A DNA stretch of 47,884 nt, taken from contig JAYTFV010000224.1 in NCBI GenBank assembly GCA_043734065.1, positions 1 through 47,884 on the forward strand, in the 5' to 3' direction. This document shows positions 11,401 to 40,944 of this stretch, piece after piece. This stretch comes from Planctomycetota bacterium (GTDB lineage Bacteria > Planctomycetota > Planctomycetia > Planctomycetales > Planctomycetaceae). The translations under genes and the position numbers were made by a program. Under the pieces are notes generated by a model that was not told the DNA's origin, did not search any database, and saw only the letters and a list, made by a program, of their open reading frames with translations. Within the stretch, counting starts at the first letter, position 1; each line of letters starts with the position of its first letter.

Positions 11401-14400
11401 CGACGTGATCGTCGACCCCGGTGCGGCGACGAATTCGAACTGCCCACCCGACAAGCCACTCACGGTGTAGCTCAACTGCGAGTCCGAGTTATCGGGATCG
11501 GTCGCGTTGATTTGAGCGTTCGTCAGGACCACCGTGCCGCCCTCAGAAATCGTGAGCGAGTTCGCGGTGAAGCTCGGGGCATCGTTGACGTTCGTGAACG
11601 TGCCGATCGTCACCGTGCTGGGACCGTCGGACAGGCTGCCATCACTGACCGTGAGTTGATACGTGGGAGCCGACTCACCTCCGTCGTGAACGAACTGGAC
11701 AGATCCAGATTTGATGTCCGCATGGGTAAACGTCGTGATCGCCGCACCGGGCGTGGCGACCCACTCAAACTGACCGCCGCTGAGATTGCTGACCGTATAC
11801 GTCAGGTTCGCGGAGGCCGTATCAGGATCGCTGGTACTGATGTTCGCGGCACCGAGCAAGACCGTCCCGCCTTCAGTGATGGACAATGTGTTCGTCGCAA
11901 TGACTGGAGCATCGTTGACTGCCGTGACCGTGATGTTGGCGGTTTCGCTGGCCGTACTGAACGCCGTGCTGCCTCCGTTGGCGCTGACATCCACCTGGGT
12001 TCCCGGCGTGCCGCTAGTTTGATCCCACGCGCGGAAGGTCACTGAGGCGGTCGTCCCATCGAGGCCATTGGGGACGAATCGCAACCGGTCAGTATCGCGC
12101 AGCAGCAGAGCGGAATTGTCGGATGCGCTGCCCACGGCGAACCAGTTGGTCCCGTTGATCGTGTACTCCCAGGTGCCGTTGCCGCTGGTGAGCCCCGTGA
12201 CGGCAAAGCCCTCGAAGGCAAACGCAGAATCGGGGTCGGTCACGCGGTCGCCTCCCGCGCTCATGATGATCGACCCGATCGCATCGCCGCTGTTGGTGAG
12301 GTTGTCCTCCGTGATCGTCACGAGCGTCATCGTGCCGCTGTTGTCGAGGACCGGCGCATCGTTGACCGCGACGACGTTTAAGGTGTTCTGCCCGTTGTTG
12401 CTGGTGCCGCCATCGCCGTCGGTCACCACGATGCGAATCGATCGCGCTGTCGTCGAGGGACTGTCCGAGACGTTCGAGAACTGCACGTTCCTGGCCAGAG
12501 CCTGGACAGCTGAGACCGTCGCATTGGAGTTGAATGTCACCACCAGAGGCGTGGCCCCGCTGGTGCCGCCGGTCCAGGTGCCGATGGCGGTGCCTTGAAA
12601 GGTGACATTCGCCCCGCTGATCCCGATCTGCCCCGCGCCGGTGCCTTGATTTTGGATCGTGATGCGATCGTCGACAGAACCATTGAGCGGGAGCGACGCC
12701 GTCAATGTGCCCGTGTCGAAGTTGGCCGAGTCGACATCCGTGACGCGGGCAGCCGCATCGAACAATACGGGCGTGCCATTCTCGATGAAGGTCACAGCGC
12801 CACTAGGCAGGGAGATGACCGGTGCATCATTGACGGGCGTGATGTTGAGCTGAATGGCATACCCGGACGTGTTCACTCCGCCGTTGCTCGTGCCGCCCGA
12901 GTCGACCACACTGAACGAGAAGAACGATGGCCCGCCGTTGCGATCGGTTGCCGGGCGGAACTGCATGCCCTGCAATTCGGTCAGCGTGTAGGTGCCCACC
13001 GTGACGGGCGTCGTCCCGTCTGCCAGGTAGACGACTCCGAAGAACGTCGGGTGCGGGATTGTGGTGACTTGGTAGGTCAGCGTCTGGCCTGCTTCATCCG
13101 CTCCTCCACCCGGAGAGAACACGAGGCTCCCCAATCCCAGCGAGGTCAGACCGGAGTCTTCCAACACCGTCAGGTTATTGACACTGCCCGCCATCAGCAC
13201 GGGCGCATCGTTGACCGCCATCACGGTGGTGCTGAGCGACACCAGGCTGGAGCTGATGGCCGAGGTTCCGCCGGGGCTGGAGGTGTCGACCAGCACGCGA
13301 GTCGCTCCGCTGGTGAATCCACCCGCATAGCTGTCGTCGAGGCCCCGCAGCGACAGGATTGTCGGAGAGCCATTGAAATCGGCGGCGGGCACAAACCGCA
13401 CTCGCGTGCTGACATCCAGCGCCAGCCCATTCACGCCGACGCTAACAATATCGAACCAGTTGGATCCGCTGTCCGTCGAGTATTGCCAGACCCCTTCCGA
13501 GATCGGGGCAGTGTTGGAGGTGACGGCGATCCCCGACAGGCTCGCCCCCGCGTCGGGATCGCTGAAGCTGCCGGAGAACAGGCTACCGATGGTGGCCCCG
13601 GCAGGCTGAGTGGTGTCTTCCAGAACGGCCGTGAGAGAGCCCGCGCTGATTGTCGGAGCGTCGTTCACGGGCGTGACGTGCAAGTAGACCGTCGCCGTCG
13701 TCGAGTTGAGACTGCCGTCGTTGACGTAATAAGTGAAGGTGTCGACGCCGGTGAAGTTTGCAGCAGGCGTGTAGGTGAACGAGCCATCAGCGTTCAACGT
13801 AAATGCAAGAGCGTGGGCCGGTCCGGTATCGAGAACCGCAGTCAACGAGTCGCCATCCACATCGAAGTCATTGAGCAACACGCCCGGCGCAGCGACAGTG
13901 AGTGTCGTGTCCTCCAGCAGCTTATCGCCCGCCCACGCTGGCTGTCGGCCCGCGACGCCACCGCCGAGAGTTCCCTGATTGAGGGCCGCGGAGCTGTCGA
14001 AGGCCGTGCTGCCGGAGTTTTCTTCGAACCGCCAATTGCCCACGAGATTGGCCTCGGAAGAGCCGGTCAGCGTCGCGTTCATATTGCCCGCAATCTCAGC
14101 CCCCGTGCGAGCAATGTTCCAGACGCGAACGTCGGTGATCTGACCATCAAAATACTGGCCTGAGGGGTTGTTCAACCGGCCGCCAATCGTCAGTTGGTTC
14201 AGCGCGGGATAGACATCACCGATCGTGCCTGACCCCGAGTAGACATTGACACTGACGCCGTTGACATAGGTTGTCACAACCCCGGCGTCATAGGTCAAAG
14301 CGACATGCGTCCAGACTCCGTTGTCCACAAATTGCCCCGTGCCTTGCCAGCTCCAGCCCGGAGTCGTATTGGCCACGGCCCAATAGATTTCGCCGTTGGG

Positions 14401-17400
14401 GAAGATCGAGAGTTCATATTCACCTTCCTTGTTGAGGATCATGCGATTGGAGTTCGCGGACGGTTCGGGATTGATCCAGGCTTCCAGCGTGAACGAGTTC
14501 GTCATGTGCAGGGAGGGAGAGTCAGCGATCGAGACGCTGTCATCGACCCCGTCAAAATCGAGTGCCAGGCGATCATCGGCAGCTCGGGGAGCATTGTTGA
14601 CGGCTGCGACTGACAGACTGGTGCCGTTCGTGCCGACACTGAAGGCGGTGCTGGCTCCAGTGGATGTCACATCGGCTGGACTGCCTGCTGTCCCGGTTGT
14701 CTGGTCCCACGCCTTGTAGTTGAGCAGTCCCGAATTGCCGTTGAAGTTGGCATTCGGGACGAAGCGAATCGCTGCGGTCGCATCCGCCGGGAGCAGGAGC
14801 GCTGCGGTCGTCGAAGGAGTCCCCACAGCGAGCCAGGTGGTCCCGTTGAGGGTGTACTCCCAGGTGCCGTTTGTCGTGGGAACCGAGATGATCGCCACAC
14901 CCTTCAAGGCACCGGCATCCGCATCGGTCACTTCCGTATCGACCAGCTGCGACACCAGCGTCCCACTGTTCGTGACATCATCTTCATTGATCGAATTCAA
15001 GACCGAGGAGGCGACGAGGACCGGGGCGGAATTGGCTGCTGTCAGCGCGAAGTTGGCAGCGAACTCCGAGGTGCTGCCGTAGGCCAGGAAGTCGCTGATG
15101 CCGACCTGAGCAGAGGTTTCGATGCGGGTGGCCGTGGCAGTGACCGAGTCACCAGCGACCAGTGAGACGCCCGTAAGCGCCACTGCCGAAAAAGTCGCAT
15201 CACCACTGGCGTTGGTCGTGACGTTGGTCGAGCCGAGATAGATGCGACCTTCGCCGTTGGTGGCGTCCTGCGTGCCCGCCGGGTTGCCGTAGAACTCAAT
15301 GCGGTATTGAGTGCTCAGCCCATCGGTATTGAGCGAGCCACTGACTGTGAGGTTGGTCCCGTTCAGGGCCGCCGAGGTGATGACCGGGTAGTTCTGCAGT
15401 CCGTTCGCACCAGTGTCGACATCGTTCACATCGTTGGCGGTGACACCGTTGTCATGCAGATCGATGGCCAGATCGCCATTGTTGCGAAAGATGTTGCCGA
15501 GGATCGCGTTCCCGGACCCGGCACTCGAAGCGAAGGCGATTCCGTCCTGGGTATTGTTGGCGATCACATTGCCTTCGCCCACACCCGTCCCTCCGATCAG
15601 GTTGTGGTCAGAGCCAGCTCCCGTGATGCCGATCCCTTGCAGAGCATTCCCGAGTCCCGCCGCACCCAGCGAGTTGGTCCCGAGGAAGTTCCCCTGGATC
15701 GTGTTTTTTGCCGATCCGGTCAGGTAGATGCCATAGTTGGTTGAACCACCGACCGTGTTGCCCGTGATGGTGTTGCCGTCGGTCGAGAGATAGATGCCAG
15801 TTCCCCCGAGGATGGCCATCTGGGTGGCATTGAGGCCGACGGTGTTCCCCTGAATGGTGTTTCCGGCTCCGGTGCTACTCAAGTTGATCCCCCACTGGCC
15901 ATTGGCAGCCACCAGGTTGTCCTGGATCGTCACTCCGCCCGCTCCGAAGTTGACCTCGATCCCGTCGAACGTATTGCCCAGGGTCTGCAACCCGTCCTTG
16001 TCGGTCCCCACGTAGTTCCCCTGAACTGTGGCAGAGACGCCGGTGCCCGTGACATAGACACCGCGGAGGCTGTTGCCGGAGATGACGTTGCCAGCGCCGA
16101 CGCTACTTCCGCCGATCGTGTTCCCGGTCGCCGAGACATTCACCCCGTTGGCCGAGTTCCCAAGGTTGATCTCGCCCGTCAGATCAGTCCCGATGTAGTT
16201 CCCCTCGACAACGTTTCCGGTGGTTCCCGTCCCCTGAATGGAGACGCCATCGCCCTGGTTCCCGGAGATGACATTGCGGGCCGAGGCCGTCGTTCCTCCA
16301 ATGGTGTTGTCGTGGGCTCCGCTGCCCAGGCTGACACCCGATCCAGCGTTGCCGATGATCAGCGTGCCGGATGGATCGGTGCCGATCAGGTTGCCTTGGA
16401 CCACGTTGCCCGTGGCGTTGGAGCCGCTCAGAACCAGGCCAGTGCCAGCGTTGCCAGAGATCATGTTGCCCGCGCCCGCCGCCGTGCCGCCGATCGTGTT
16501 GTTGGAGGAGTCGGCCATGATGAGGCCCGCCCCGCTGTTGGGCACCGCGAATGTCCCGGTGGGATCCAGGCCGATCCAGTTACCCTCGACGAGGGTATCC
16601 GTCGTTCCGCTGGCAAACAGGTCGATGCCATAGGTATTGCCGGAGATCACATTTCGCTCGCTGGCGGTCGTGCCTCCGATGATGTTGTGGGGCGAGTCAT
16701 AGACGAGCATGCCGAACGTGCCGCCTAGCGCCGCCGATCCGCTGGCGTTCGTGCCGATGATGTTGCCTCGCACCAGCGTGTCGGACGTGCCTCCGTTGAG
16801 AAAGATGTTCTGGTTCGTGTTGCCCGCGATCACGTTGCCCGCCCCGGTGGCGGAATAGCCGAGCGTGGTGCCGCTGACATTGCTGATCTGCACGCCCACA
16901 CTGTTGGCCAGCGCAGTTGACCCACTGGCGTTGAGGCCGATGGTGTTGCCCTGGATCGCGTTGCCCGTGGCGGTGGCGTCGTAGACTTTGATGCCGCCCC
17001 CCGTGTTCCCGCTGATCAGATTGCCCTGGGCGAGGCTGCCGCCGATCGTGTTGTTTTGGGACGTGCCGTGAATCGTGATGCCCGAGGCATTGGCCAGCGC
17101 GGCATTTCCCGAAGCATCGGTCCCGATGTCATTCGCGACGACCGTGTTATTGCTGGAGTTGTTGATCTCGACTCCCGACCCCGCATTCCCGGAGATCACG
17201 TTTCGCGCCCCCGCCACTGAGCCACCGATCGTGTTGTTCGCCGCGCCGCCAGTGATGAATACGCCGGTCGACCCGTTGGCGAGCGCCGCGCTGCCTCCGA
17301 CATTGGTGCCGATGAAGTTGCCCTCAATTACGTTGCCGGTCGCCGTGGCACCATCGATTTCGATGCCATAGGCCGTATTGCCCGAGATGAGGTTGCGGGC

Positions 17401-20400
17401 CGCGACCGTCGTTCCGCCGATCGTATTGTTCGCGCTGCTGACATACACGCCGACCATGTTTCCCAGTGCGGCGGTACCGGCGGCATTGGTGCCAATCGAG
17501 TTGCCCTGCACCACGTTGCCAGTGGGAGCGGTGCCATCGAGGATGATGCCTTCGTAGGTACTGGCTGCGACCACGTTCCCCGCGCCCGCCGCCGTGCCAC
17601 CGATGGTGTTGCCGTCGGCTCCGTTAGTGACGATCACCCCGTGATGATTCGCCAGCGCTGCGCTCCCCGTGACGCTCGTCCCGAGGAAGTTGCCCTCGAT
17701 CACGTTGCCAGTCGTCCCGGCACCATCCAGGATGATCCCCGACGCCCCCAGGTGAACTCCCATTTGCCCCGAGATCAGGTTGCGGTCCGCAGCTGTGGTG
17801 CCGCCGATCACGTTTCCACTGCTGCCGCCAGTGACGCTCACCCCGTACCAGGCATTCCCGTAAGCGGTGGTCCCCGTCACGTCGGTGCCCAGATAGTTTC
17901 CAGCGATGAGGTTGTTGTCCGAGTTGTTCAGATCAATGCCGCTGCCGTCGAAGCGGTTGATGACCAGCCCACGAATCGTGCTGCCACTGGCCCCCGAGTT
18001 GAGCCGCAAGCCCTCCGCTCCGGCCCCGGCGTTCCCCCCGTTCAGCTCAATGATCGGCGTGCCCGCGAAATCGGCGTCGGTCGTGCCGTCGATGATCACG
18101 GCATCGGTGAGGGTGGGTAGCCCGCCCGCCGAAACGACGATCGTGTGCGCCCCGCCGACCAGCGGCGCGGCGATGTTGAATTCAATCGTGTCGGTCCCCG
18201 CCGTGGCGTTCGCGGCCAGGATCGCTTCGCGCAGGCTGATCTTGCCGTCGGCTCCCTTGTTGGCGGAGAGGGCCGCGATGCTCGACGTGTCGCCGTCCGC
18301 AGCATCACTGGTCGTGTCGACGGTGACATCGTGCGTGATGGGGATCGGGGACAACAGTGCAATCGCGTCATACTCTTCGCCACTCGCTGTGAGCCCGATG
18401 TCCGAACCCTGCACCAGCAATGCAGCCGAAGCCGAACTGGTTCCCGTGCCGGTCGCGGTGACCGTGAGCGAGAAGATGTCGAATTTCGTGACGGCCAGGT
18501 TGTTCACACCCACGGAATCGGACGCGCTCAGCGAGATCAGCAATTGCCCGGCCGTGAGTGACACGCCTCCCAATGTCGTGTTGGACTGGATCAGTTCCAA
18601 TCCGTAAATCTGCGAGCCGAACCCAATGCCCGCGCTCTGGCCATCAATGAGTTCGGTGCGGGTTCCGATAGTCGTTCCGGGCCCCACATCGGTGACGTGA
18701 TAGAGGCTGACATCGCTACGGTAGGCCGCATTCGCATCCGTCAGCAGAAAGTCCCCCGCGTTCAAGGTCACGCCGCCCACGACCGTGGACGTTTCGACCA
18801 GGGCGAAGTCGCGAGTCCCGCTGCCCCCCATCGGGTTTTGCAGCAGGACGGAGAATGTTCCGCTGCTGTAGTCGCCCGCCGTCGTCGGTCGGAACAGGAT
18901 GATGTCGTCGATTGACACCGCCACGCCGCCCAGGGTTTCATTGGTAGCCGTGCTCAACAGCAGGTCGCCCGGATTCAACGTCACGGCATGGGCGCTGCCC
19001 ACGGTCACGGACCGCGAGACATAATGGAAGCCGTTCAAGTTCACGAAACCGTCGGCGGCAAATGTGTTGAGGTCGAATTCCGTCTTGAAGAAGGTGCCCG
19101 CCGTTATGCCGGGTTCGAAGCTCAGGTTCGGATCGCCGATTTGCACGATCGTGCCCGAGTTCCACGTCAGGCCACCGGCCGCTCCATTGTTGGGACTGGA
19201 GATCCACAGGCCCGTGTTACCACGGACCGAGACCGTGGCGGAAAACTCCGAGGTGTTATTGCCGGAATCGGTCGCGGTGGCCGAGAGGAACTCGCCCGCC
19301 GCAACGCTGCTAGTCAGCGTGGTGTTGATCGCAGCGTTGCCGGAGCCGTCAGTCGTCGCATTCACAAAGCCGAGGTACGTCTGCCCTTGACCATAGCCGG
19401 TGGCGTCGACGGTCGGGGAGGAGAAGAACTCGATGCGAAATGTGCTCGACGCCGTGCTATTCAGCGAGCCGGTGATCGTCGTGTTGCCGCCGGACGAAGC
19501 GGCACTCATCAGCACCGGGAAGTTCTGCAAGTTGTTCGGGCCGCTGTCGCCATCACCCGAGTCGTTGGCGGTGACCTGGTCATTGGCCAGGTCGATGCCG
19601 ACCTGGGTGTTGGAGTAGATCGCGTTGCCCAGGATCGGGTTGCCCGTCGTACCCGCGTTGTCGATCAGGACACCCTGCCAACTGTTGAATGCGATCCGGT
19701 TGCCCGCACCGGCTGCGGTGCCGCCGATATGATTGCTGGTCGCGCCGTTGCTGACCAGCACGCCGCGATTCAGGTTGCCGAGATTCAGCGAGCCCGCGGC
19801 GTCGGTGCCGATGAAGTTCCCCTGCACGATGTTGGAGGATGTCCCCGCGTCGGACAGGAACACGCCATTCAGGTTGCCGCCGATCACGTTCCCCGCACCG
19901 GCTGCTGTGCCTCCCACGATGTTGTCCGCTGCGCCGAGTTGGATCTTCACACCGGCGAGCGCATTGCCGATGACCCCCGTGCCCGCCGCGTTGAGGCCCA
20001 GGTAATTCCCCTGCACGAGGTTGCCGGTCGTACCCGCATCGACGAGATGGATGGCGTTGAAGTCGTTTCCGGAGATCACGTTTCGCGCGGCTGCCGTCGT
20101 GCCGCCGATCGTGTTGTTGGTGGCCCCGTTCGACAGTCGGACGCCCGTCGAGGTGTTGCCCAAGTCGGCATCGCCTGCGGCGTTCGTGCCGATGTAATTG
20201 CCCCGCACGACGTTGCCAGTCGCAGCCGCACCGTCGATGAATATGCCGTAGAGGTTGTTCCCGCTGATCACGTTGCGGTCGGCGGCTGTCGAGCCGCCGA
20301 TGATGTTGCCGCCCGACAGCACCTCGATCCCCGTTCCGGCATTGCCCAGGTCGACCGTGCCCGCCGCGTTCGTGCCGATGTAGTTCCCGGCGATGGTGTT

Positions 20401-21603
20401 CCCGCCGCTGGTCGCATCAACTTGAATGCCGTCGTCGGTGAAGCGGTTGATGACCAGTCCACGGATCGTGCTGCCTGCGGAACCAGCACTCAACTTCAGT
20501 CCGTCGACCACGGCGTTGCCGCCATCGAGCTCGATGATCGGTGTGCCTGCGAAGCCCGGCTCGCTCCAACCGTCGAGAATCACAGTGCCGGTGATCGTCG
20601 GCAGCGCGGAGGTCAGGTTGATCGTATGCGTTCCAGCCCCGATGATATTGAAGGCAATCGTGTCCATGCCCCCTAGTGCGTTGGCGTCCAGGATCGCCTG
20701 GTTGAGTGACCCCGCCCCGCTGTTGTTCGTGTTCGTCACTGTGAATGTATTGAGCAACGCGTCCCACTCCGACTGGAGCAATCCGCTGAAGGCCACATCG
20801 GTTTCGACAGCGCCGAGGTGGTACTCCAGATCCCAGTTCCCGCCCAGCAACGACGAGCCGGTATCGTCGATGCTGGCCGCGATGTCGGCCCCGGTCAGTT
20901 CGACGAGGTTATTCAGCAGTGCCCGCCCGAGATCGTTCCCCGCCAGATCGCAGCCGTAGACCAGCAGGTCCGCCCCTGGCTGGAGGGCCTCGCCCCAACT
21001 GGCAATCTGGTCGCGGTGCTGATCGAGCGTCGCAGCGTCGAGCCACGTATCGCCGAGCTTAATTGCGCGGTCGGCCCCGTGCGTGACGAAGTGGACCGCG
21101 TCGAGTTTCTCGGTCGTGTACTGAGCGAGGGTCTCGGTGATTTGGGTGAGGCCGTCTTCCTGGGCAGAGAGCAATACGACATCAATGTGGCGGGCGGGGT
21201 CTTGATGGTTCCAGATGTCGTCCAGCAGGGCCTGGTAGTTCTCCACACCGGTGTCGATGAAGACCAGTTCATGCGTCGTGGGAGTCAGCACTCCCGCTGC
21301 TGGCTTCTGCTCTAAGACCGACACCTGTCCGGCGTCCGGTGTCGATGTCGGCTGAGCTGCGGACTGGACCACAACCGGTGCATCCAGCGACGCGGCCATC
21401 ACGGTCTGAACCTGCGCATCGGGAGCGGGCGCGACCGGCATCGGACCCGGCGCAGCACTGAACAGCAGCCGGTCCTCCATCGAGATCAGCTCCAATTGCC
21501 TCGCCCCCGACCGTTTGAGGCGAAGTATCTTCGATAACCGCTCCATCGACTCGGAAGCCCGCATTCCCGTGCGGACCAGCAGATCGCGAAGAATCATTGC
21601 CAC
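8425..21603 (-). CDS. giant (4392 aa) DUF4347 / parallel beta-helix / LamG / cadherin-repeat surface protein with a C-terminal membrane anchor
   Basis: A single uninterrupted 13,179-nt ORF with GTG at 21603 and the first ATG at 21597. The N-terminus has 'MEDRLLFSAAP'. A DUF4347-like module spans ~20820-21282 (HELVFIDTGV..LLVYGCDLAG..GGNWDLEY). Two parallel beta-helix blocks (~19250-20780 and ~15050-18370) each open with a CSLREA-like segment (e.g. 'ISLREAILAANA') and close with 'VTANDxxDxDxGxNxLQNxPV'. A LamG-like module lies at ~14060-14580 (LALDFDGVDDSV..FTLEAWINP..DVRVWN). Numerous ~100-aa 'VNDAP'-delimited Ig/cadherin-like modules follow, then 4 canonical cadherin repeats, a Thr/Gly linker, a hydrophobic C-terminal segment (~8560-8660) and an acidic tail. 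Domain coordinates are approximate. Confidence 0.95.
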   Translation of the reverse strand: MAMILRDLLVRTGMRASESMERLSKILRLKRSGARQLELISMEDRLLFSAAPGPMPVAPAPDAQVQTVMAASLDAPVVVQSAAQPTSTPDAGQVSVLEQKPAAGVLTPTTHELVFIDTGVENYQALLDDIWNHQDPARHIDVVLLSAQEDGLTQITETLAQYTTEKLDAVHFVTHGADRAIKLGDTWLDAATLDQHRDQIASWGEALQPGADLLVYGCDLAGNDLGRALLNNLVELTGADIAASIDDTGSSLLGGNWDLEYHLGAVETDVAFSGLLQSEWDALLNTFTVTNTNNSGAGSLNQAILDANALGGMDTIAFNIIGAGTHTINLTSALPTITGTVILDGWSEPGFAGTPIIELDGGNAVVDGLKLSAGSAGSTIRGLVINRFTDDGIQVDATSGGNTIAGNYIGTNAAGTVDLGNAGTGIEVLSGGNIIGGSTAADRNVISGNNLYGIFIDGAAATGNVVRGNYIGTNAAGDADLGNTSTGVRLSNGATNNTIGGTTAAARNVISGNDFNAIHLVDAGTTGNLVQGNYLGLNAAGTGVIGNALAGVKIQLGAADNIVGGTAAGAGNVIGGNLNGVFLSDAGTSSNIVQGNFIGTDAAGSLNLGNLNRGVLVSNGATSNHIGGTAAGAGNRIAFNSWQGVLIDNAGTTGNPILGNAIYSNTQVGIDLANDQVTANDSGDGDSGPNNLQNFPVLMSAASSGGNTTITGSLNSTASSTFRIEFFSSPTVDATGYGQGQTYLGFVNATTDGSGNAAINTTLTSSVAAGEFLSATATDSGNNTSEFSATVSVRGNTGLWISSPNNGAAGGLTWNSGTIVQIGDPNLSFEPGITAGTFFKTEFDLNTFAADGFVNLNGFHYVSRSVTVGSAHAVTLNPGDLLLSTATNETLGGVAVSIDDIILFRPTTAGDYSSGTFSVLLQNPMGGSGTRDFALVETSTVVGGVTLNAGDFLLTDANAAYRSDVSLYHVTDVGPGTTIGTRTELIDGQSAGIGFGSQIYGLELIQSNTTLGGVSLTAGQLLISLSASDSVGVNNLAVTKFDIFSLTVTATGTGTSSASAALLVQGSDIGLTASGEEYDAIALLSPIPITHDVTVDTTSDAADGDTSSIAALSANKGADGKISLREAILAANATAGTDTIEFNIAAPLVGGAHTIVVSAGGLPTLTDAVIIDGTTDADFAGTPIIELNGGNAGAGAEGLRLNSGASGSTIRGLVINRFDGSGIDLNNSDNNLIAGNYLGTDVTGTTAYGNAWYGVSVTGGSSGNVIGGTTAADRNLISGQMGVHLGASGIILDGAGTTGNVIEGNFLGTSVTGSAALANHHGVIVTNGADGNTIGGTAAGAGNVVAASTYEGIILDGTAPTGNVVQGNSIGTNAAGTAALGNMVGVYVSSANNTIGGTTVAARNLISGNTAYGIEIDGATATGNVIEGNFIGTNVGGSAALANGSTGVFITGGAANNTIGGSVAGARNVISGNAGSGVEINNSSNNTVVANDIGTDASGNAALANASGITIHGTSQNNTIGGSLAQGNLISGNTGGGIKVYDATATGNAIQGNTIGLNASGSTALANSVGVQISNVSGTTLGYSATGAGNVIAGNTNQNIFLNGGTSDTLVRGNIIGTNASGSAALGGTFGMLVYDSPHNIIGGTTASERNVISGNTYGIDLFASGTTDTLVEGNWIGLDPTGTFAVPNSGAGLIMADSSNNTIGGTAAGAGNMISGNAGTGLVLSGSNATGNVVQGNLIGTDPSGTLIIGNAGSGVSLGSGAHDNTIGGTTASARNVISGNQGDGVSIQGTGTTGNVVEGNYIGTDLTGEINLGNSANGVNVSATGNTIGGSSVGAGNVISGNSLRGVYVTGTGVSATVQGNYVGTDKDGLQTLGNTFDGIEVNFGAGGVTIQDNLVAANGQWGINLSSTGAGNTIQGNTVGLNATQMAILGGTGIYLSTDGNTITGNTVGGSTNYGIYLTGSAKNTIQGNFLGTNSLGAAGLGNALQGIGITGAGSDHNLIGGTGVGEGNVIANNTQDGIAFASSAGSGNAILGNIFRNNGDLAIDLHDNGVTANDVNDVDTGANGLQNYPVITSAALNGTNLTVSGSLNTDGLSTQYRIEFYGNPAGTQDATNGEGRIYLGSTNVTTNASGDATFSAVALTGVSLVAGDSVTATATRIETSAQVGISDFLAYGSTSEFAANFALTAANSAPVLVASSVLNSINEDDVTNSGTLVSQLVDTEVTDADAGALKGVAIISVPTTNGTWEYTLNGTTWLAVGTPSTTAALLLPADATAAIRFVPNANFNGNSGLLNYKAWDQTTGTAGSPADVTSTGASTAFSVGTNGTSLSVAAVNNAPRAADDRLALDFDGVDDSVSIADSPSLHMTNSFTLEAWINPEPSANSNRMILNKEGEYELSIFPNGEIYWAVANTTPGWSWQGTGQFVDNGVWTHVALTYDAGVVTTYVNGVSVNVYSGSGTIGDVYPALNQLTIGGRLNNPSGQYFDGQITDVRVWNIARTGAEIAGNMNATLTGSSEANLVGNWRFEENSGSTAFDSSAALNQGTLGGGVAGRQPAWAGDKLLEDTTLTVAAPGVLLNDFDVDGDSLTAVLDTGPAHALAFTLNADGSFTYTPAANFTGVDTFTYYVNDGSLNSTTATVYLHVTPVNDAPTISAGSLTAVLEDTTQPAGATIGSLFSGSFSDPDAGASLSGIAVTSNTAPISEGVWQYSTDSGSNWFDIVSVGVNGLALDVSTRVRFVPAADFNGSPTILSLRGLDDSYAGGFTSGATRVLVDTSSPGGTSAISSSLVSLSTTVMAVNDAPVLMAGSVNNLTVLEDSGLTSLGLGSLVFSPGGGADEAGQTLTYQVTTIPHPTFFGVVYLADGTTPVTVGTYTLTELQGMQFRPATDRNGGPSFFSFSVVDSGGTSNGGVNTSGYAIQLNITPVNDAPVISLPSGAVTFIENGTPVLFDAAARVTDVDSANFDTGTLTASLPLNGSVDDRITIQNQGTGAGQIGISGANVTFQGTAIGTWTGGTSGATPLVVTFNSNATVSAVQALARNVQFSNVSDSPSTTARSIRIVVTDGDGGTSNNGQNTLNVVAVNDAPVLDNSGTMTLVTITEDNLTNSGDAIGSIIMSAGGDRVTDPDSAFAFEGFAVTGLTSGNGTWEYTINGTNWFAVGSASDNSALLLRDTDRLRFVPNGLDGTTASVTFRAWDQTSGTPGTQVDVSANGGSTAFSTASETANITVTAVNDAPVIATNTLSITEGGTVLLGAANISTSDPDTASANLTYTVSNLSGGQFEWVATPGAAITTFTHADIKSGSVQFVHDGGESAPTYQLTVSDGSLSDGPSTVTIGTFTNVNDAPSFTANSLTISEGGTVVLTNAQINATDPDNSDSQLSYTVSGLSGGQFEFVAAPGSTITSFTQDDINNARVQFVHDGGEAAPIYSLTLSDGSSNVGPSDAVVTFTNVNDAPAISVNTLTISEGGTVVLSLTNLSTADPDNTPDQSTYTASNVSHGQFEFVAATGTAITSFTQADIIAGLVQFVHDNGNLAPAYDLTVSDGSLSNGPSSVAVTFTPVNDVPTISAVVNQTVNEDTTLGPLVFTIGDSETAATGLVVTATSSDAALIPNGNIVLGGTGANRTVTITPALNQNGGPVTITLTVDDGTATTQTAFDVTITPVNDLPVIAPQRFNVNENSPVGTVVGAVMASDVDTGAVLTYAIDAGNTNGAFAIDPVTGQITVLNPAALDFETTPQYLLAVSVTDSVGAPQSATITIDLNGLNETPTSLNLSSASVNENSLLGTPVGQLSSTDVDTGDTATYSLVDDAGGLFVVDSLSGQITVNGSLDFETASNHTIIARVTDSGGLTLDRRFMISLVDLNEAPVLVGGAFGLPENSANGTLIGTLSASDVDAGDQLTFTLVSGNTGGAFAIDAVTGAITVANTAALDFEAHSTFSLIAQVADRAGLTNQQTVSVSLSDVNEQPVILAGTYHIHEWSSVGNLVGIVAASDVDAGDVLTYSFVAGNTGGRFAIDPNSGDITVANAAYFTHESQSSFTITVQVQDTAGLARSADMTILIDNVNVAPVAVNDQYTLSQFQSLTTVAMTGVIANDSDSDSVSITATIVQGPQHGTLTFNADGTFTYVADHLYFGMDSFTYVLNDGLESSGVATVSLTVGLLAPSGGSLNGNSGTGTTTTTTTNAGVDSGNNTAVTPVVSTVTTASSGVTRQAIASTGGLIGVYSSQAHDEAVPPSTSETGDDFFVRSTRIGDLVSGSRGFLAPRSTMRETLYRMPDLIPVIATLIPDSLHNLTHAILENQTMWNDLNSFRDQLESQQHSSALVEDIVVGTTTAVTGGLTVGYVIWLIRGGSLLATMISVMPTWMSFDPLPVMDRFEEERSEEDKESLASIVTGGAGDRG
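9420..10620 (-). repeat. four tandem canonical cadherin repeats (~100 aa each) inside the giant CDS
   Basis: The repeated pattern is 'NENS..G..VG...A.DVD.GD.LTY.....NTGGAFAID..TG.ITV....LDFE.......V.D..G'. Each unit ends in 'LNE(T/A/Q)P' or 'VNVAP'. Confidence 0.75.
11020..12010 (-). repeat. three tandem ~327-bp (about 109-aa) related coding repeats inside the giant CDS
   Basis: The unit is 'VNDAPxxxxNxLTISEGGTVxL....(I/L)xTxDPDxxxxxLxYTVSxLSGGQFE(F/W)VAxxGxxITxFTxxDIxxxxVQFVHDGGExAPxYxLT(V/L)SDGS'. The nucleotide anchor 'gtcgtgaacgaactgcac' or a close variant recurs near 11027, 11353 and 11683. Confidence 0.8.
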
Positions 21604-36153: not shown

Positions 36154-36300
36154 GCCGTCCCCGCCGTCCCCTGATTTGCGACGAACGGCTGCATGAAGTA
36201 ATGTCCCGGCTTGGAGTTTTGGCCCGTACGCCACAGCGGCGGGTCGGTCAGGTGCGGCACTCTTCCTCAGAGTGACCGCCTTCACGCAGGAGCATCAGTC

Positions 36301-37356
36301 GTGCCGGAAAACGTCGTCATCATCGGGTCGGGGCCTGCGGGCTGGACAGCTGCCATTTATGCCGCGCGGGCGAACCTGAACCCCATTGTGTATGAAGGGG
36401 CGATCAACGGCGAGAACCAGATCAAGGGGACGCTGCCGCTCGGACAGTTGAATCAGACGACCGAAGTCGAGAACTTTCCCGGCTTCCCGACGGGGGACAT
36501 GCTGAGCTATCTGGATGCGTCGATCGATGCCCAGCGTCGCATGTACATGATGCCGCACCGGGGGCACGGGGTCAGCGGGCCGGAGCTGATGGAGCTGATG
36601 CGGCAGCAGGCGGTCAACTTCGGCACGCGGGTCGTGACCGATGACATTGTCGACATCGATCTGTCCCAGCGACCGTTCAAGATGAAGTCGCTGGAAGGCC
36701 AGGAGATCGTGGCCCACTCGGTGATCATCGCCACCGGTGCGCGGGCGAACTATTTGGGCCTCGACTCCGAGAATAAGTTCAAGAACATGGGCGTGTCGGC
36801 CTGTGCCGTGTGCGACGGGGCGTTGCCTCGGTTCCGCGAGCGTCCGCTGGTCGTCATCGGCGGCGGCGACAGCGCGATGGAAGAGTCGAACTACCTCACC
36901 AAGTTCGCGTCCAAGGTCTACATCGTCCACCGCCGCGACTCGTTCCGCGCCAGCAAGATCATGGCCGACCGCGCGCTCCACAACCCCAAGATCGAGGTTA
37001 AGTGGAACTCCTCCGTCGACGAAGTCATCGGCAACGATGACGAAGGCGTCACAGCTGTGCGGATTCGGAGTCTAGTCGAGGCCGAGAAGACGGAGACCCT
37101 CGAAGTCTCCGGCTACTTCTGCGCGATCGGCCACACGCCGAACACCGACTTTCTCAAGGGCCAGATTACCCTCAACGACAAGGGCTACATCCAGTGGCCG
37201 GTGTCGCACCGCACGATGACCAACATCGAAGGCGTCTTCGCCGCTGGCGATGTCGCCGACGACTACTACAAGCAAGCCGTCACCGCCGCTGGTTCGGGCT
37301 GCCAAGCCGCCCTCGACTGCGAACGCTGGCTGGCTGTGAATGGGATTGGTCACTGA
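36301..37356 (+). CDS. trxB: thioredoxin-disulfide reductase
   Basis: A GTG at 36301 precedes the FAD motif '[20 protein letters not shown]'. The redox centre is 'CAVCDG' and the NADPH motif is '[12 protein letters not shown]'. The tracked ORF from 36211 adds an implausible N-terminal extension. Confidence 0.93.
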
Positions 37357-37394
37357 GCGAAGACGAATTCGCGATGTCACGAGTGAGGTGAATC

Positions 37395-38594
37395 ATGCCA
37401 TTCCTGAAGTCCATCAAGTTGTCTGGATTTCTCTCTTTCCCACCGGACGCGGAGGCGATTCCGCTCACGTCGCTGAATGTCATCATTGGCCCCAATGGAT
37501 CGGGAAAGTCGAATCTGATCGAGGCGATTGACTTACTTGCTTCCGCTCCCAAGTCCGCTCTCGCCGATACGATTCGAGTGGGAGGTGGAGCTACAGAATG
37601 GATATGGAAAGGTGAGCCGCGGGCGGAGCGATCAAGCATTGATGTGACGCTCGAAGACACCCCCTGGGGTAAGGATTTGCGGTATCAGATCGTCTTCACG
37701 CCAGCGGGACAGCAGTTCCAGATTGTTGACGAAGTCATTGAAGATGTGGCGAAGTCAAATCCAGCGGCAGATGATGTCTATTTCTATTACCGGTACCAAA
37801 ACGGTGCGCCCGCCATCAATGCGTGCGAGCCGGTGACGAACGCAACAAGCAAAACAACTAGGACTCTACGCAAGCTTGAGCGGCCAAAGACTCAGGATGT
37901 ATCTGTTCTTTCACTGAGACGCGAAGAAGATATTTACCCGGAACTATTCTGGCTTGGAACTCGATTCAGCAACATTCGAGTATTCAATTCATGGTCGTTT
38001 GGGAGAAAAGCTCCACTTCGGCTGCCACAGCGAACCGATCTCGATCCGTTCGACCTGCTCCCCGGTTCTGAGAACTTGGGAGTTGTGTTGAATGAACTTC
38101 TACACAGCAGCATCACGGAGGAGTTTAATCGGCAAATGACTCTGTTTCTGCCTCGCTATCGGCGGTTCAGCGTTCGGATTTACGGGAATACCGTTCAACT
38201 CTATCTCCACGAGGATGGTTTGGGAACGCCAGTCCCAGCAACCCGATTGTCCGATGGAACAATCCGTTTCATGGCAATTCTGGCGTTGCTCTTATCGCCG
38301 AATCCGCCACCACTTCTGTGCATTGATGAGCCGGAGATGGGTTTGCATCCAGATGCTGTCAGCCGACTGGCCGACTTGCTGGTGGATGCATCCGACCGAA
38401 TGCAACTGATCGTGACAACGCACTCTGATACTCTCGTCTCTGCTCTGACCGAACACGCCAATTCAGTTCTGGTCAGCGAGAACTTGAACGGGACCAGATT
38501 GGATCGAGTCGATCCTCAGCGACTTGAACTCTGGCTGTCAAAATATCGCCTCGGCGATATCTGGCGGATCGGTGAGATTGGGGGCAATCCATGA
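37395..38594 (+). CDS. ABC/SMC-like AAA ATPase (AAA_21/AAA_15-type, COG4637-like)
   Basis: ATG 37395 has a 'gaggtg' ~7 nt upstream. Walker A is 'GPNGSGKSN' (about 37488-37514). The signature-like motif is 'LSDGTIRFMAILALL', Walker B is 'LLCIDEPEMGLHPD' and the H-loop is 'VTTHSD'. GC is lower here: lines 37681 and 37921 count 52% and 45%. Confidence 0.85.
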   Translation: MPFLKSIKLSGFLSFPPDAEAIPLTSLNVIIGPNGSGKSNLIEAIDLLASAPKSALADTIRVGGGATEWIWKGEPRAERSSIDVTLEDTPWGKDLRYQIVFTPAGQQFQIVDEVIEDVAKSNPAADDVYFYYRYQNGAPAINACEPVTNATSKTTRTLRKLERPKTQDVSVLSLRREEDIYPELFWLGTRFSNIRVFNSWSFGRKAPLRLPQRTDLDPFDLLPGSENLGVVLNELLHSSITEEFNRQMTLFLPRYRRFSVRIYGNTVQLYLHEDGLGTPVPATRLSDGTIRFMAILALLLSPNPPPLLCIDEPEMGLHPDAVSRLADLLVDASDRMQLIVTTHSDTLVSALTEHANSVLVSENLNGTRLDRVDPQRLELWLSKYRLGDIWRIGEIGGNP

Positions 38595-39271
38595 AAGAGA
38601 TTGTCATCTATGTCGAAGGCGGGGGTGATACGGTATCGCAGAGAAAGGAGTTGCGAATGGGATTCGACAGTCTTTTTCGATCGCAGAAAGAGGCTGCCCG
38701 CAGGAATTCCATTTCTCTCAAGTTTGTTCCATCTGGCGGTCGGGGAGAAACGTTCAAGACATTTCGGAACAAGATGGACCAAGCTGGATCGACTCAACAC
38801 ATTGTGCTCCTGGTCGATTCCGAGGGGCCGATTCCAGCGGAAACTGATACCAAGGATGAAGCGAATGCCAATGCAAGAGTTCAGCATCTCGTGAATCGCG
38901 ATGGCTGGAGCTTCAGGGGAGTTGAACCATCTCATGTTCATCTCATGGTTCAGTGCATGGAGGCATGGATTCTCGCTGACCTGGAGCAAATGGGGAAATT
39001 CTACAAGAAGAATTTTCGACGAAACGCTCTTCCACAACTCCCAAACATGGAGAACGAAGCGAAGACATCCATCTACTCCAAGATCGTAGCGGCCACAAAG
39101 GACACACAGAAAGGTGAATACTCCGATGCCAACAACGCCAAAATCACTCACGCCAGCAAGCTCTTGGAGATGATCCGTCCCGAAGAGATATCAAAAAGGT
39201 GTCCTCGATTCAAGACTTTCGTCAGGTGGCTCGACGAGATCGTCGCTCCGACAACTTCCCCAAATCGCTGA
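38591..39271 (+). CDS. DUF4276/RloB-like (Toprim-like) partner protein of the ATPase
   Basis: The start overlaps the ATPase stop (ATGA at 38591-38594). The protein is 226 aa. Conserved acidic positions are 'IVIYVEGGGD', 'IVLLVDSEG' and 'VQCMEAWILAD', the pattern expected for Toprim-like DUF4276/RloB proteins that pair with such ATPases. The family call is from motif memory, not a search. Confidence 0.65.
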   Translation: MKEIVIYVEGGGDTVSQRKELRMGFDSLFRSQKEAARRNSISLKFVPSGGRGETFKTFRNKMDQAGSTQHIVLLVDSEGPIPAETDTKDEANANARVQHLVNRDGWSFRGVEPSHVHLMVQCMEAWILADLEQMGKFYKKNFRRNALPQLPNMENEAKTSIYSKIVAATKDTQKGEYSDANNAKITHASKLLEMIRPEEISKRCPRFKTFVRWLDEIVAPTTSPNR

Positions 39272-39281
39272 ATCCTCCACC

Positions 39282-40118
39282 ATGCCCAACACCCCCCTTC
39301 GCATCCTCATCATCGGCGCCCACCCCGACGATTGTGACCTCAAGGCGGGGGGCACAGCTGCGATCTATCGATCGCTGGGTCATGAGGTGCGTTTCGTCAG
39401 CGTGACCAACGGTCAGTCCGGGCATCAGCAGATGTACGGCGAGGCGCTGACGGCCCGGCGTACCGAAGAGGCGGCCCGCGCGGGTCGCGTGATCGGCGTG
39501 CAGTACGATGTGCTGGAGTTCCCCGACGGCGGGTTGCAGCCGACTCTGGAGGCTCGTTATAGGATCATCCGTCTCATCCGCGAGTTCGCCCCGGACTTGA
39601 TCCTCACTCATCGCCCGAACGACTATCACCCGGACCACCGCTACACTTCGCAGATCGTGTGCGACGCGGCGTACATGGTGATGGTCCCGGCTGTGGTGCC
39701 GGAGGTGCCGCCCTTACGAAAAAACCCGGTGATGGGGTTCCTGTCGGATGATTTTCAGAGGCCGTACCGGCTCAGCCCGACGGTCGTCGTCGACATTGAG
39801 CCAGTGCTGGACCAGGTGATTGACATGCTCGATTGCCACGAGTCGCAGTTCTACGAGTGGATGCCGTGGATCGGGTTCTTCGGTGACACGCCGATGCCGA
39901 CCGGACTCAAGGAGCGCAAGCAGTTCCTCCGCGAAACGATCCTAGCCCGCATCGCCCCGCTGGCCGACCGATTCCGCGAGTTGGTCGTGAAGACCTATGG
40001 CCCCCAGCGCGGAGCGAAGATCAAGTACATTGAGGCGTTCGAGCCGTGCGAGTACGGAGCTCCACTGGATAAGGCCGCAAAGCAGCGGCTCTTCCCGTGG
40101 CTACCAGTCGTGGGATAG
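39282..40118 (+). CDS. PIG-L/LmbE-family N-acetylglucosaminyl deacetylase
   Basis: The Zn-binding motifs 'ILIIGAHPDDCDLKAGG' and 'HRPNDYHPDHR' are present. The protein is 278 aa. Confidence 0.85.
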   Translation: MPNTPLRILIIGAHPDDCDLKAGGTAAIYRSLGHEVRFVSVTNGQSGHQQMYGEALTARRTEEAARAGRVIGVQYDVLEFPDGGLQPTLEARYRIIRLIREFAPDLILTHRPNDYHPDHRYTSQIVCDAAYMVMVPAVVPEVPPLRKNPVMGFLSDDFQRPYRLSPTVVVDIEPVLDQVIDMLDCHESQFYEWMPWIGFFGDTPMPTGLKERKQFLRETILARIAPLADRFRELVVKTYGPQRGAKIKYIEAFEPCEYGAPLDKAAKQRLFPWLPVVG

Positions 40119-40176
40119 GCGTCCAGCCTGTCGTCTTTTCTAAACAACAGTCGACAGGCTGGAAGCCTATCCCACG
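40109..40176. repeat. 25-bp-stem palindrome filling the PIG-L / next-gene spacer (terminator or REP-like)
   Basis: The left arm at 40109-40133 is 'cgtgggataggcgtccagcctgtcg'. The right arm at 40152-40176 is 'cgacaggctggaagcctatcccacg'. They match 24/25, with an 18-nt loop. The left arm includes the last codons and stop of the deacetylase gene. Confidence 0.7.
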
Positions 40177-40185
40177 AGGCACTTC

Positions 40186-40944
40186 ATGGACTCGGACAAC
40201 CCTGATGACGACTTCCTGACTGCCGATACTCCCGGCTTTCGCTGGCCGTTCGGCTGGGGGGTGATGTTAGCCCTCGGCTGGCTAGCGTTCGAACTCACAG
40301 CCCAGCCGCGATTCGGAATTGCTGTCACCTGCACCAAGTTGATGTGGAATGACCTCGTCACCGCCCGCTGGTGGATCAAACGCGACCCCTGGTGGCAGCG
40401 CAGAGTCTGTGTGACGATACTGTTGGTGATTCGAGCAATCACGAAATACTCCTTCACGTTGATGGGGATCTGCATGGTCTCTTCCTTCTTCGAGAATTCG
40501 GGTAAACCTTTCGAATTGACGACATTGAGGTACTCCTTTGTGATTGGATACGGAGCATTCATATTGGGATCAATCGCTGGGGTGGTCATCACGCCTCTGT
40601 CGATCATTAGCGGTGTGCGATTGTGGCTCGACAAGGGGGTCACGGAATCTCGTCGCGTGGATCATTTTCCGCCGAAACCACGAGGCATGAACCAGACAGG
40701 TTTGCTACTGCTGGGCACTCGATTCTTCGAATGCTTCTTATGCGGGATCCTTCTCTCAGCGATAACCAAGAATCTTCCAGTGAACGATAATGGAAAGTTA
40801 TTACTTATTGTCCTTGGAATTATACTACTACTATTTTGCCAGTATCACCTCACTCATCTAATCCTCGCCATGACTCCCCAGGACGGCTTGTATTCCGGTG
40901 GAAAGCTGGCTCCGCCCTCAAAGGGAGACGATGGCTGGGACTGA
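40186..40944 (+). CDS. hypothetical multi-pass membrane protein (no family recognised)
   Basis: The start is ATG 40186 and the protein is 252 aa. It has 5-6 hydrophobic helices (e.g. 'GVMLALGWLAFELTA', 'VCVTILLVIRAI', 'LLLIVLGIILLLFCQY'). GC falls to ~43% on line 40741. I prefer this ORF over the overlapping minus-strand ORF because of its TM periodicity. Confidence 0.5.
   Translation: MDSDNPDDDFLTADTPGFRWPFGWGVMLALGWLAFELTAQPRFGIAVTCTKLMWNDLVTARWWIKRDPWWQRRVCVTILLVIRAITKYSFTLMGICMVSSFFENSGKPFELTTLRYSFVIGYGAFILGSIAGVVITPLSIISGVRLWLDKGVTESRRVDHFPPKPRGMNQTGLLLLGTRFFECFLCGILLSAITKNLPVNDNGKLLLIVLGIILLLFCQYHLTHLILAMTPQDGLYSGGKLAPPSKGDDGWD

Follow-up and report, generated by a model that had tools for sequence, protein, structure and literature searches.

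We examined a gene pair within a 47,884 nt stretch of DNA from a Planctomycetota bacterium (GenBank assembly GCA_043734065.1, contig JAYTFV010000224.1, positions 1 to 47,884 of the forward strand), here called the window. Gene A codes for a 399-aa ATP-binding cassette (ABC) type ATPase and gene B for a 226-aa DUF4276 protein; the two are located between trxB, for a thioredoxin-reductase-type flavoprotein, and a gene for a PIG-L family deacetylase. The pair is HEC-01 (Hma-embedded candidate 01), an already catalogued candidate anti-phage system, and the type of system is not new. On analogy with related ATPase-Toprim systems we think it reasonably likely that the locus represents a chromosomal HEC-01 copy in which B, under the control of A, acts as a Toprim-type nuclease against phage. 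Both proteins are intact and under purifying selection, with all of the ATPase motifs in A and an acidic cluster (E9, D76, E78, E124, D130) in B; the pair is foreign in composition, patchy in distribution, and lies between two core genes without a mobility gene; and family-wide it is associated with modification-based immunity.

Identification of the gene pair as HEC-01

The product of A matched the Pfam family AAA_21 (E 8.8e-42; 144.6 bits, cut-off 27; profile positions 1-304 of 304) and the PADLOC model HEC-01A (PDLC04177; E 5.3e-143, residues 3-398 aligned to profile positions 4-391 of 393). The product of B matched DUF4276 (PF14103; E 8.6e-24; 85.3 bits, gathering threshold 30.2; profile positions 1-191 of 192), as did all 66 of its relatives, and the PADLOC model HEC-01B (PDLC04201; E 1.6e-59, residues 1-217 on profile positions 1-199 of 202); among the other PADLOC models there was no match of note for B. 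The HEC-01A and HEC-01B matches were adjacent, on the same strand, and came from genes overlapping by 4 nt. The Pfam and PADLOC searches had been proposed together with the original prediction, made from the sequence alone, and its assignment of an ABC ATPase plus a DUF4276 protein was borne out by them. Other PADLOC models matched A more weakly (AriA; mad3, E 6e-26; AbiLi, E 8e-23; NsnB, E 2e-20; Old), with the Old and ATPase-Toprim models aligning over about 50-60 residues around Walker B only. A search of PHROGs added nothing useful for the pair. By every measure that could be computed the pair belongs to HEC-01, AAA_21 and DUF4276, and falls outside PARIS, OLD/Gabija, AbiL, MADS and RecF.

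HEC-01 was defined by Payne et al. in 2024 as an ABC ATPase with a TOPRIM protein (10.1101/2024.01.29.577857). The window pair has the same gene order and the same composition, i.e., an ABC ATPase misread as AAA_21 and a small TOPRIM-like DUF4276 protein. It differs in its location, in a Planctomycetota chromosome between trxB and PIG-L and outside Hma; the family-defining features are identical. Most members of the family are found away from other defence genes and some lie inside DNA-modification systems, in line with what Payne et al. state generally about their shortlisted candidates: those shortlisted for independent function were also common outside hma loci (10.1101/2024.01.29.577857). 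The original prediction had called the pair a candidate uncharacterised anti-phage module. The HEC-01 models support the anti-phage part, whereas "uncharacterised" fails, the system having been both catalogued and assayed. Its remark that the DUF4276 flavour of Toprim has no defined mechanism holds for HEC-01 in the literature, and the papers found that mention DUF4276 define none.

The ATPase encoded by gene A

A is a compact ABC ATPase of the AAA_15/21 (OLD/PARIS/AbiL/Septu-like) group. Conservation was scored over 65 homologues at 36-76% identity (coordinates here and below are on the + strand unless marked). The Walker A motif (P-loop) GPNGSGKSN, aa 32-40 (37488-37514), has G32, N34, G37, K38 and S39 invariant; around the ABC signature-like motif LSDGTIRF, aa 285-292 (38247-38270), residues R284, S286, D287, G288 and R291 are invariant. 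Walker B with the D-loop, LLCIDEPEMGLHPD, aa 307-320 (38313-38354), has P313, E314, G316, H318, P319 and D320 invariant and E312 conserved in at least 90%; and in the H-loop TTHSD, aa 341-345 (38415-38429), T341, T342 and S344 are invariant with H343 conserved in at least 90%. The full ABC ATPase motif set (Walker A, signature, Walker B with the catalytic Glu, D-loop, H-loop) is present and conserved, as is a C-terminal W380/Y384/W390/GGNP tail. Because these catalytic motifs are invariant or nearly so among homologues, A is almost certainly an active ATPase.

The AlphaFold2 model of A (predicted local distance difference test score, pLDDT, 90.5) has the predicted fold of an ABC head, with beta strands at aa 80-160. 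When compared with the Protein Data Bank (PDB) using Foldseek, it gave 226 matches at E <= 1e-3, headed by SMC, Rad50, PtuA (Septu/retrons), GajA and OLD heads (probability 1.00, E 2e-13 to 2e-10). The two ends of A enclose a variable, beta-rich central insert (about aa 61-270; 37575-38204), a candidate sensor or specificity region; the consensus of the 65 homologues is mostly "x" over about aa 115-175. The dN/dS ratio (nonsynonymous to synonymous substitution rates) of A against relatives was 0.09-0.12, indicating purifying selection.

The DUF4276 protein encoded by gene B

Conservation of B was scored over 66 homologues at 34-81% identity. Three acidic motifs stand out. In YVEGGGD, aa 7-13 (38609-38629), G11 is invariant and E9, G10 and G12 are conserved in at least 90%; in LLVDSEG, aa 73-79 (38807-38827), D76 is invariant and E78 conserved in at least 90%; and in MEAWILAD, aa 123-130 (38957-38980), M123, E124, W126 and D130 are all invariant. 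R22, K158 and K184 are also invariant, and H117 is conserved in at least 90%. The dN/dS ratio of B was 0.15 against the relative L014 (introduced below). These three motifs and the four of the ATPase make up the seven that the original prediction had named, each of which was found where it had been placed.

The AlphaFold2 model of B (pLDDT 94.9) has a beta-alpha-beta-alpha-beta-alpha-beta core. Glu9 ends predicted strand beta-1, D76-x-E78 ends predicted beta-3, and the third motif lies just past beta-4. In a canonical Toprim domain a conserved Glu after beta-1 and a DxD after beta-3 form the metal site; in the model (pLDDT 95), E9 and D76-S-E78 of B fall at these two positions, the second as DxE. 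The top viral structural match of B was an RloB-like protein (probability 0.97), weak by E value (4e-3) and template modelling score (0.37-0.39). Published comparisons report that HEC-01B shares structure and metal site with the TOPRIM domain of BpOLD (10.1101/2024.01.29.577857), and place DUF4276 and RloB in the Toprim superfamily, with Mad4 as a DUF4276 homologue (PMC12065111). Mainly from these structure comparisons and the conserved metal site, B is a probable member of the Toprim superfamily and is presumed to be a Toprim-like, metal-dependent nuclease effector. It is small and single-domain, without a recognisable DNA-binding domain. The DUF4276 profile found 2,261 representative clusters among 1.84 billion, and the best-scoring 150 of the 2,261 were nearly all stand-alone proteins of about 200-230 aa.

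In the public gene call of the source record B is 204 aa long. The 226-aa start is correct, since homologues cover residues 1-22 including the near-invariant Glu9. Gene callers also started B too late in two metagenomic relatives, at 104 aa in both L175 (6342-7022) and L176 (3072-3752); the late starts cut off the N-terminal Glu9 motif, whereas all 226 aa are encoded in the DNA. We considered if the 104-aa forms represented inactivation and rejected this, the DNA being identical to the intact 226-aa gene in L177: they are a gene-calling artefact. Given such late start calls, database entries for DUF4276/HEC-01B may often miss the first catalytic motif.

Arrangement and composition of the locus

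All genes of the locus are on the + strand. The left flank is trxB (36211-37356; Pyr_redox_2, E 3.6e-50), a host core gene with an uncertain TTG start codon at 36211 and its stop at 37354-37356. A 38-nt spacer (37357-37394), with a Shine-Dalgarno-like GAGGTG at 37385-37390, 4-9 nt before the ATG of A, leads to gene A (37395-38594). Gene B (38591-39271, ATG start, stop at 39269-39271) overlaps A by the start/stop sequence ATGA at 38591-38594; the coupling junction (38580-38594) includes a Shine-Dalgarno-like GGGGG run at 38580-38584, encoded by the GGNP* codons that end A. A 10-nt spacer (39272-39281) separates B from the ATG, at 39282, of the PIG-L gene (39282-40118; PIG-L, E 2.3e-30), the host core gene of the right flank. 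The two reading frames, the ATGA overlap and both spacers are all as the original prediction had read them.

The GC content of the pair is 0.52, against 0.617 for the remaining window, and at third codon positions (GC3) it is 0.56 in both A and B, against 0.77-0.86 in host genes (0.83 in trxB, 0.81 in PIG-L). The contrast that had been noticed beforehand is real, with the range of 45-52% given for lines of sequence slightly narrow: 60-nt lines within the pair span 0.43-0.60. As had also been claimed, no scar of insertion was seen, in that no direct repeat of at least 7 nt is common to both junctions, and no integrase or transposase family was found by a Pfam scan of most, not all, open reading frames (ORFs) of the window.

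There was no terminator-like site on the + strand between trxB and PIG-L, and no sigma-70-like promoter within the 38-nt spacer; the first + strand terminator-like hairpin (40114-40132) comes after PIG-L. Because no such site occurs before that hairpin, the pair and its neighbours, trxB included, are probably co-transcribed. With a spacer of 10 nt and the hairpin beyond it, PIG-L would have to be read through from the pair.

Relatives with and without the pair at the trxB-PIG-L site

An identical locus was found in two Logan assemblies. The order trxB-A-B-PIG-L was also found at the same site in L014 (metagenome-assembled genome (MAG) GFS_1605) and L046 (MAG GFS_12863), which belong to two Planctomycetota species of the GTDB, and in a third, metagenomic lineage (L175-L177). 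The left spacer of the window is homologous to those at the occupied sites of L014 and L046. In the close relative L094 (a JGI contig) the site is empty, with trxB (90-92% aa identity) directly followed by PIG-L (89% aa identity); among relatives with or without the pair, trxB is 83-93% identical. The pair at this site is therefore a presence/absence polymorphism in the clade, L094 being empty and its relatives occupied, and in this unrooted comparison the state of L094 is either a loss or ancestral. The 98-nt trxB-PIG-L intergenic region of L094 is unrelated to the spacers of the occupied sites; it contains (within 5900-6000) an inverted repeat, CAGAATTCG…CGAATTCTG, which the occupied sites lack and which is probably a terminator or regulatory hairpin. 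A further contig, L095, was considered as carrying alternative cargo at this site and was rejected because its gene order differs: a membrane-protein gene on the opposite strand lies upstream of PIG-L.

Horizontal acquisition of the pair, as originally proposed, is supported by its GC3 (0.56 vs about 0.8), by ATPases about 60% identical across unrelated phyla, and by the empty site in L094. The acquisition is not recent, since the same site is occupied by the pair in at least three related lineages. Low GC does not date the event because it is a trait of the family: in 64 of 70 genomes the GC of the pair was below that of the host (mean difference 5.5 points), and it was equally low in the relatives sharing this site; low GC as a proof of recent acquisition was rejected for this reason.

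Divergence from L014 is uneven along the locus. For trxB and PIG-L the proportion of synonymous differences (pS) was 0.31-0.39 (synonymous substitutions per site, dS, 0.40-0.54), for A it was 0.70 (dS about 2; dN/dS 0.09), and for B 0.48. Within A, codons 1-60 were flank-like (pS 0.34), codons 61-270 were saturated (pS 0.85, 63% aa identity), and codons 271-399 were 95% identical in protein yet had a pS of 0.65. Nucleotide identity to L014 was 39-67% in the insert of A, 76-87% in the ends of A, and 82-97% in the flanks. In L046, B (5772-6440) was 41% identical to the window B and had IIEVFIEAGPKGKNSANG in place of YVEGGGD, and A was 67-69% identical; the effector half appears either exchanged or rapidly diverged. 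The simplest reading of these patterns would be that old variants of the cassette have replaced one another as alleles, or recombined into mosaics, at a fixed site and under purifying selection.

Distribution and context of the A-B family

A pattern scan for relatives of B was positive in 360 of 185,579 species genomes, and 80 of the 360 were examined. Wherever a locus included upstream DNA, the gene immediately before B was that of an A-type ATPase, and the order, A then B, was constant. The 4-nt (A/G)TGA overlap was kept at 64 of the 80 A-B junctions that were measured in other genomes, a GG(A/G)GG run just upstream being widespread, so that translational coupling, as read from these junctions, is a hallmark of the whole A-B family. 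There was no family-wide leader, trailer or flanking repeat that might mark a mobile cassette, and upstream sequences were conserved within clades only. In eight Acidobacteriaceae loci (L027, L031, L033, L036, L037, L041, L043, L044) a palindrome, GGTACA-N9-TGTAYC, occurs about 30-50 nt before A; it is a candidate operator of a regulator and is absent from the window. In L024 (8822-10648) A and B form a single 608-aa frame, which could reflect either a genuine fusion, as in OLD or HEC-04, or an erroneous indel, the MAG being built from long reads. Truncated or frameshifted copies were seen in L034, L040 and L052, so the HEC-01 pair can decay.

For a census of context, all ORFs within 8 kb of 83 loci were clustered. 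One specific recurrent context emerged: in 13 of the 83 loci the pair lay within a type 1 BREX operon, between brxC on its upstream side and pglX on its downstream side, in the same orientation (L007, L013, L018, L029, L042, L055, L067, L070, L077, L082, L084, L087, L091; the pair at about 8800-10650 in most). The gaps between BREX genes and the pair were 1-14 nt, as measured in L007 and L011, and the BREX-embedded loci spanned Nitrospirota, Planctomycetota, Betaproteobacteria, Acidobacteriota, Latescibacterota and other groups, L018 being from Planctomicrobium sp. SH661. The recurrent clusters outside BREX were rejected as specific partners, being abundant housekeeping families (histidine kinase, sulfatase, ABC transporter, acyl-CoA dehydrogenase, aminotransferase). 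The 123 immediate neighbours of the non-BREX loci included a minority of modification-type defence genes (mad2 at 4 loci, DrmMI at 2, type IIG at 2, BrxH-like at 2), the rest being metabolic. About three quarters of the loci, the window included, have no adjacent modification gene, and most pairs stand alone among housekeeping genes.

RNA-repair genes (Pnkp kinase-phosphatase-ligase and RlaP nucleotidyltransferase) adjoin the pair in five Planctomycetota loci (L021, 10611-13294; L026, 2846-3874; L040, 10665-15447; L049, 7083-8677; L052, 10783-13302), and Hen1_L was also among the neighbours. This adjacency may hint at an RNA or tRNA substrate, or it may represent shared synteny.

Comparison with related systems

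The pair most likely works like the ATPase-Toprim systems of the PARIS, OLD, AbiL and MADS type without belonging to any of them, if these analogies are followed. In the MADS system of Pseudomonas aeruginosa, the ATPase MAD3, of the same broad group as A, is paired with the DUF4276 homologue Mad4 (PMC12065111). The window pair differs in that A reached 72 bits (E 5e-20) against the MAD3 equivalog cut-off of 420 (NCBIfam NF047739), B matches no mad4 model, and the window ORFs scanned include no methyltransferase or other gene of the MADS type. In PARIS, AriA is an ABC ATPase of the AAA_15/21 group and AriB a Toprim effector, in split genes as in the window pair; probably the ATPase acts as sensor and its response sets the nuclease free. 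DUF4276 partners are annotated on the PARIS paper's tree of AAA15/21 defence ATPases. B, however, has no detectable similarity to DUF4435/AriB, and AriA resembles A at the level of motifs only (PDB sequence search, E 4.5e-4). PARIS is also typically borne by phages or satellites, unlike the B family (see below).

In OLD and GajA an ABC ATPase controls a metal-dependent Toprim nuclease, and A matches the Thermus OLD (6p74) and GajA (8u7i) structures at E about 2e-10; there, ATPase and Toprim are fused in one polypeptide, whereas the window has two translationally coupled genes with no PF20469 match. AbiL combines the ATPase AbiLi with a small RloB-like AbiLii, and RloB proteins occur in type I restriction-modification loci. 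The AbiLi models match A at scores far below that of HEC-01A, and the best viral structural neighbour of B is annotated as RloB-like; that match is weak, and no member of the B family matches the RloB Pfam or AbiLii models. Variants of Menshen (NsnABC) use a DUF4276 effector domain together with an ABC ATPase (PMC12065111), for which the NsnB match of A is the counterpart here; Menshen has three genes, with DUF4276 as the C-terminal domain of NsnC, while B stands alone and the window has no NsnA or NsnC.

Proposed mechanism and alternatives

By analogy with OLD, Gabija and PARIS, the pair would probably be expressed constitutively by read-through from trxB, with A and B made in fixed proportion and forming a complex. 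A would dimerise on ATP and hold or control B; its variable beta-rich insert may sense a phage product or an aberrant nucleic-acid structure, whereupon ATP binding or hydrolysis at the dimer interface would license or release B. The acidic cluster of B would bind Mg2+ or Mn2+ and cut nucleic acid, halting the phage at the cost of the infected cell. DNA is the more likely substrate, being the target of MADS, BREX and DISARM alike; the RNA-repair neighbours and the precedent of PARIS keep tRNA or RNA in play as an alternative.

A number of findings weigh against this interpretation. The residues after beta-3 of B form a DxE, not the DxD of Toprim. Foldseek comparison of B with the PDB gave a best E of 0.08, with generic Rossmann-like folds at the top and none of them Toprim, and a B-family profile found nothing meaningful among PDB sequences. 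A relaxed HMMER search with B and its 66 relatives gave no match at E <= 1 to the Pfam Toprim clan, OLD-like TOPRIM, RloB or DUF4435, and a PADLOC scan of the 66 gave none to AriB, AbiLii or mad4. Alignment of the B family with P2 Old (aa 330-586) using HHalign reached a probability of 0.2, with P2 Old entered as a single sequence; a homologue search seeded with this C-terminal half gave 4 proteins. The Toprim part of the original prediction stands mainly on the published structures, our own profile, HHalign and Foldseek comparisons having returned just a weak RloB-like signal. The surroundings are not a defence island: the scanned ORFs of the window yielded no methyltransferase, integrase, toxin-antitoxin gene or other gene of defence. 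Searches of 72,556 plasmid and 50,697 phage records turned up no relative of B, which leaves no evidence for a mobile carrier; OLD, PARIS and AbiL, unlike the B family, are often borne by mobile elements. The sole HEC-01 tested by Payne et al. gave no protection in E. coli against the phages used (10.1101/2024.01.29.577857), and a 2026 cold-seep study, which reports protection of E. coli B by one HEC-01 against one or more of T4, T5 and T7, gives no detail on the strength of protection or on mutants (PMC12881386). The representatives tested in both studies came from organisms other than that of the window.

Among the alternatives, the one that survives best is that the effector is an RNase: the control by the ATPase would be the same, and B would cleave tRNA or another RNA instead of DNA. 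We hold this to be possible at a clearly lower probability. PARIS AriB cleaves tRNA-Lys and the Toprim enzyme RNase M5 cleaves rRNA, and the ABC-like anticodon nucleases PrrC and RloC act, as does PARIS, on tRNA. The size of B, its single domain and its want of a recognisable DNA-binding domain would suit such a substrate, as would the five loci beside Pnkp/RlaP genes. These five are all planctomycete, however, and may reflect one or two ancestral arrangements; the pair looks decayed in two of them, and no RNA-repair gene was found in this window. The presence of MAD3/MAD4 in a methylation-based system, together with the embedding in BREX and DISARM, points to DNA.

The history of the site allows a more speculative suggestion, which we put forward tentatively. 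The trxB-PIG-L site may hold an old, balanced polymorphism of HEC-01 alleles, in which homologous recombination, with its anchors in the conserved cassette ends and the flanking core genes and without dedicated mobility machinery, would exchange the sensor-like middle of the ATPase and, in one lineage, also the N-terminus of the nuclease; if the Pnkp/RlaP adjacency is meaningful, the DUF4276 effector would be a tRNA- or RNA-targeting Toprim nuclease and not a DNase.

Three further alternatives are each less likely than a self-sufficient HEC-01 directed against phage because the locus is autonomous, selected and polymorphic. The pair could represent a plug-in nuclease arm of methylation-based immunity (BREX, MADS, Hma, DISARM) that needs a self-marking methyltransferase, in which case the window copy, as an orphan, would either rely on a distant system or lie idle; we consider this unlikely. 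The precise and co-oriented brxC-pglX placement, the neighbours mad2, DrmMI and type IIG elsewhere, and the discovery of HEC-01 embedded in Hma (10.1101/2024.01.29.577857) would all fit a plug-in, and so would the MADS system. In the MADS paper MAD3 and MAD4 are accessory genes, deletion of mad3 or mad4 weakens defence, and mad5 can be deleted only jointly with mad2 or mad3, i.e., mad3 is required for the lethality of mad5 loss. A plug-in does not readily account for the roughly three quarters of loci that lack an adjacent modification gene. Autonomous function is argued by purifying selection on the pair and its retention in several species at a housekeeping site, and is in keeping with the protection of E. 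coli reported for a stand-alone HEC-01 (PMC12881386) and with the frequency outside hma loci of candidates shortlisted for independent function (10.1101/2024.01.29.577857).

Still less do we favour a selfish addiction module, with B a toxic nuclease, A its ATP-dependent antidote, and no anti-phage benefit, which seems quite improbable. Tight translational coupling with the putative regulator upstream has the look of such a module, and relatives carry toxin or antitoxin labels (AAA_21, "putative AbiEii toxin" in Pfam; 8v45, "AriA antitoxin" in the PDB), but the Pfam label is a name and not a test. The pair does persist at one locus without visible mobility genes; its loss is tolerated, however, since the site is empty in a close relative and copies elsewhere have decayed, and it was not in any plasmid searched. 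A hypervariable insert in A alongside conserved catalytic motifs fits an arms-race sensor better than an antidote.

Hardest to credit is that the trxB operon has co-opted a housekeeping module for DNA repair or recombination, like RecF (a headless ABC ATPase) with RecR (Toprim) or like SbcCD, since for all the RecF/RecR-like size and domain logic, the SMC and Rad50 heads among the best structural matches of A, and the co-orientation and probable co-transcription with core genes, A scored 33 bits against the recF equivalog cut-off of 172 (TIGR00611, match confined to the P-loop), and the family is rare among species genomes, variable in context, foreign in composition, missing from the site in a near relative, and in some copies BREX-embedded.

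Significance

The finding adds a chromosomal HEC-01 locus in Planctomycetota, a phylum with little-studied defence systems and phages. What it adds to the catalogued system is a site found both occupied and empty, an ATPase insert that has diverged as a mosaic, the conservation of the coupling, the placement in BREX and, as a hint, the RNA-repair neighbours. Features of the family that can be tested are the strictly conserved 4-nt coupling, the invariant or near-invariant acidic cluster of B with R22, K158 and K184, the hypervariable insert of the ATPase as candidate sensor, and the recurrent brxC-pglX placement; the natural pair of occupied and empty sites is suited to population or genetic work. 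If DUF4276 proteins are in truth the nuclease arm of methylation-based systems, or a tRNA-directed Toprim, this would bear on how BREX- and MADS-type systems stop phages. A polymorphism of recombining alleles or an RNA-targeting effector, if true, would either way exceed published knowledge of HEC-01.

Other features of the window

The window is a housekeeping neighbourhood. Before trxB are genes for pyruvate carboxylase, a 4,392-aa cadherin-like protein, a MoxR-like AAA protein, MMPL, a carbamoyltransferase, GDSL lipases, a GFO/IDH/MocA oxidoreductase and DUF2071; after the pair follow PIG-L, murD, metF, an aldehyde dehydrogenase gene and a gene for an MFS transporter. A second low-GC insertion (40186-40944, + strand; GC 0.52, GC3 0.63) lies between PIG-L and murD and encodes a 252-aa membrane-like ORF with no Pfam match; this ORF is present in the same-species contig L001 and not in the syntenic relative L014. 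Two near-identical 19-nt hairpins in opposite orientation precede it, the + strand one at 40114-40132 described above and another at 40153-40171 on the - strand. On the - strand, a 261-aa ORF of low GC (3917-4702; GC 0.48, GC3 0.51), also with no Pfam match, adjoins the pyruvate carboxylase gene. The 4,392-aa ORF (8425-21603, - strand) contains DUF4347, beta-helix/NosD, LamG and Big_9 domains with many cadherin-like repeats, and its product is presumably a cell-surface adhesin typical of planctomycetes.

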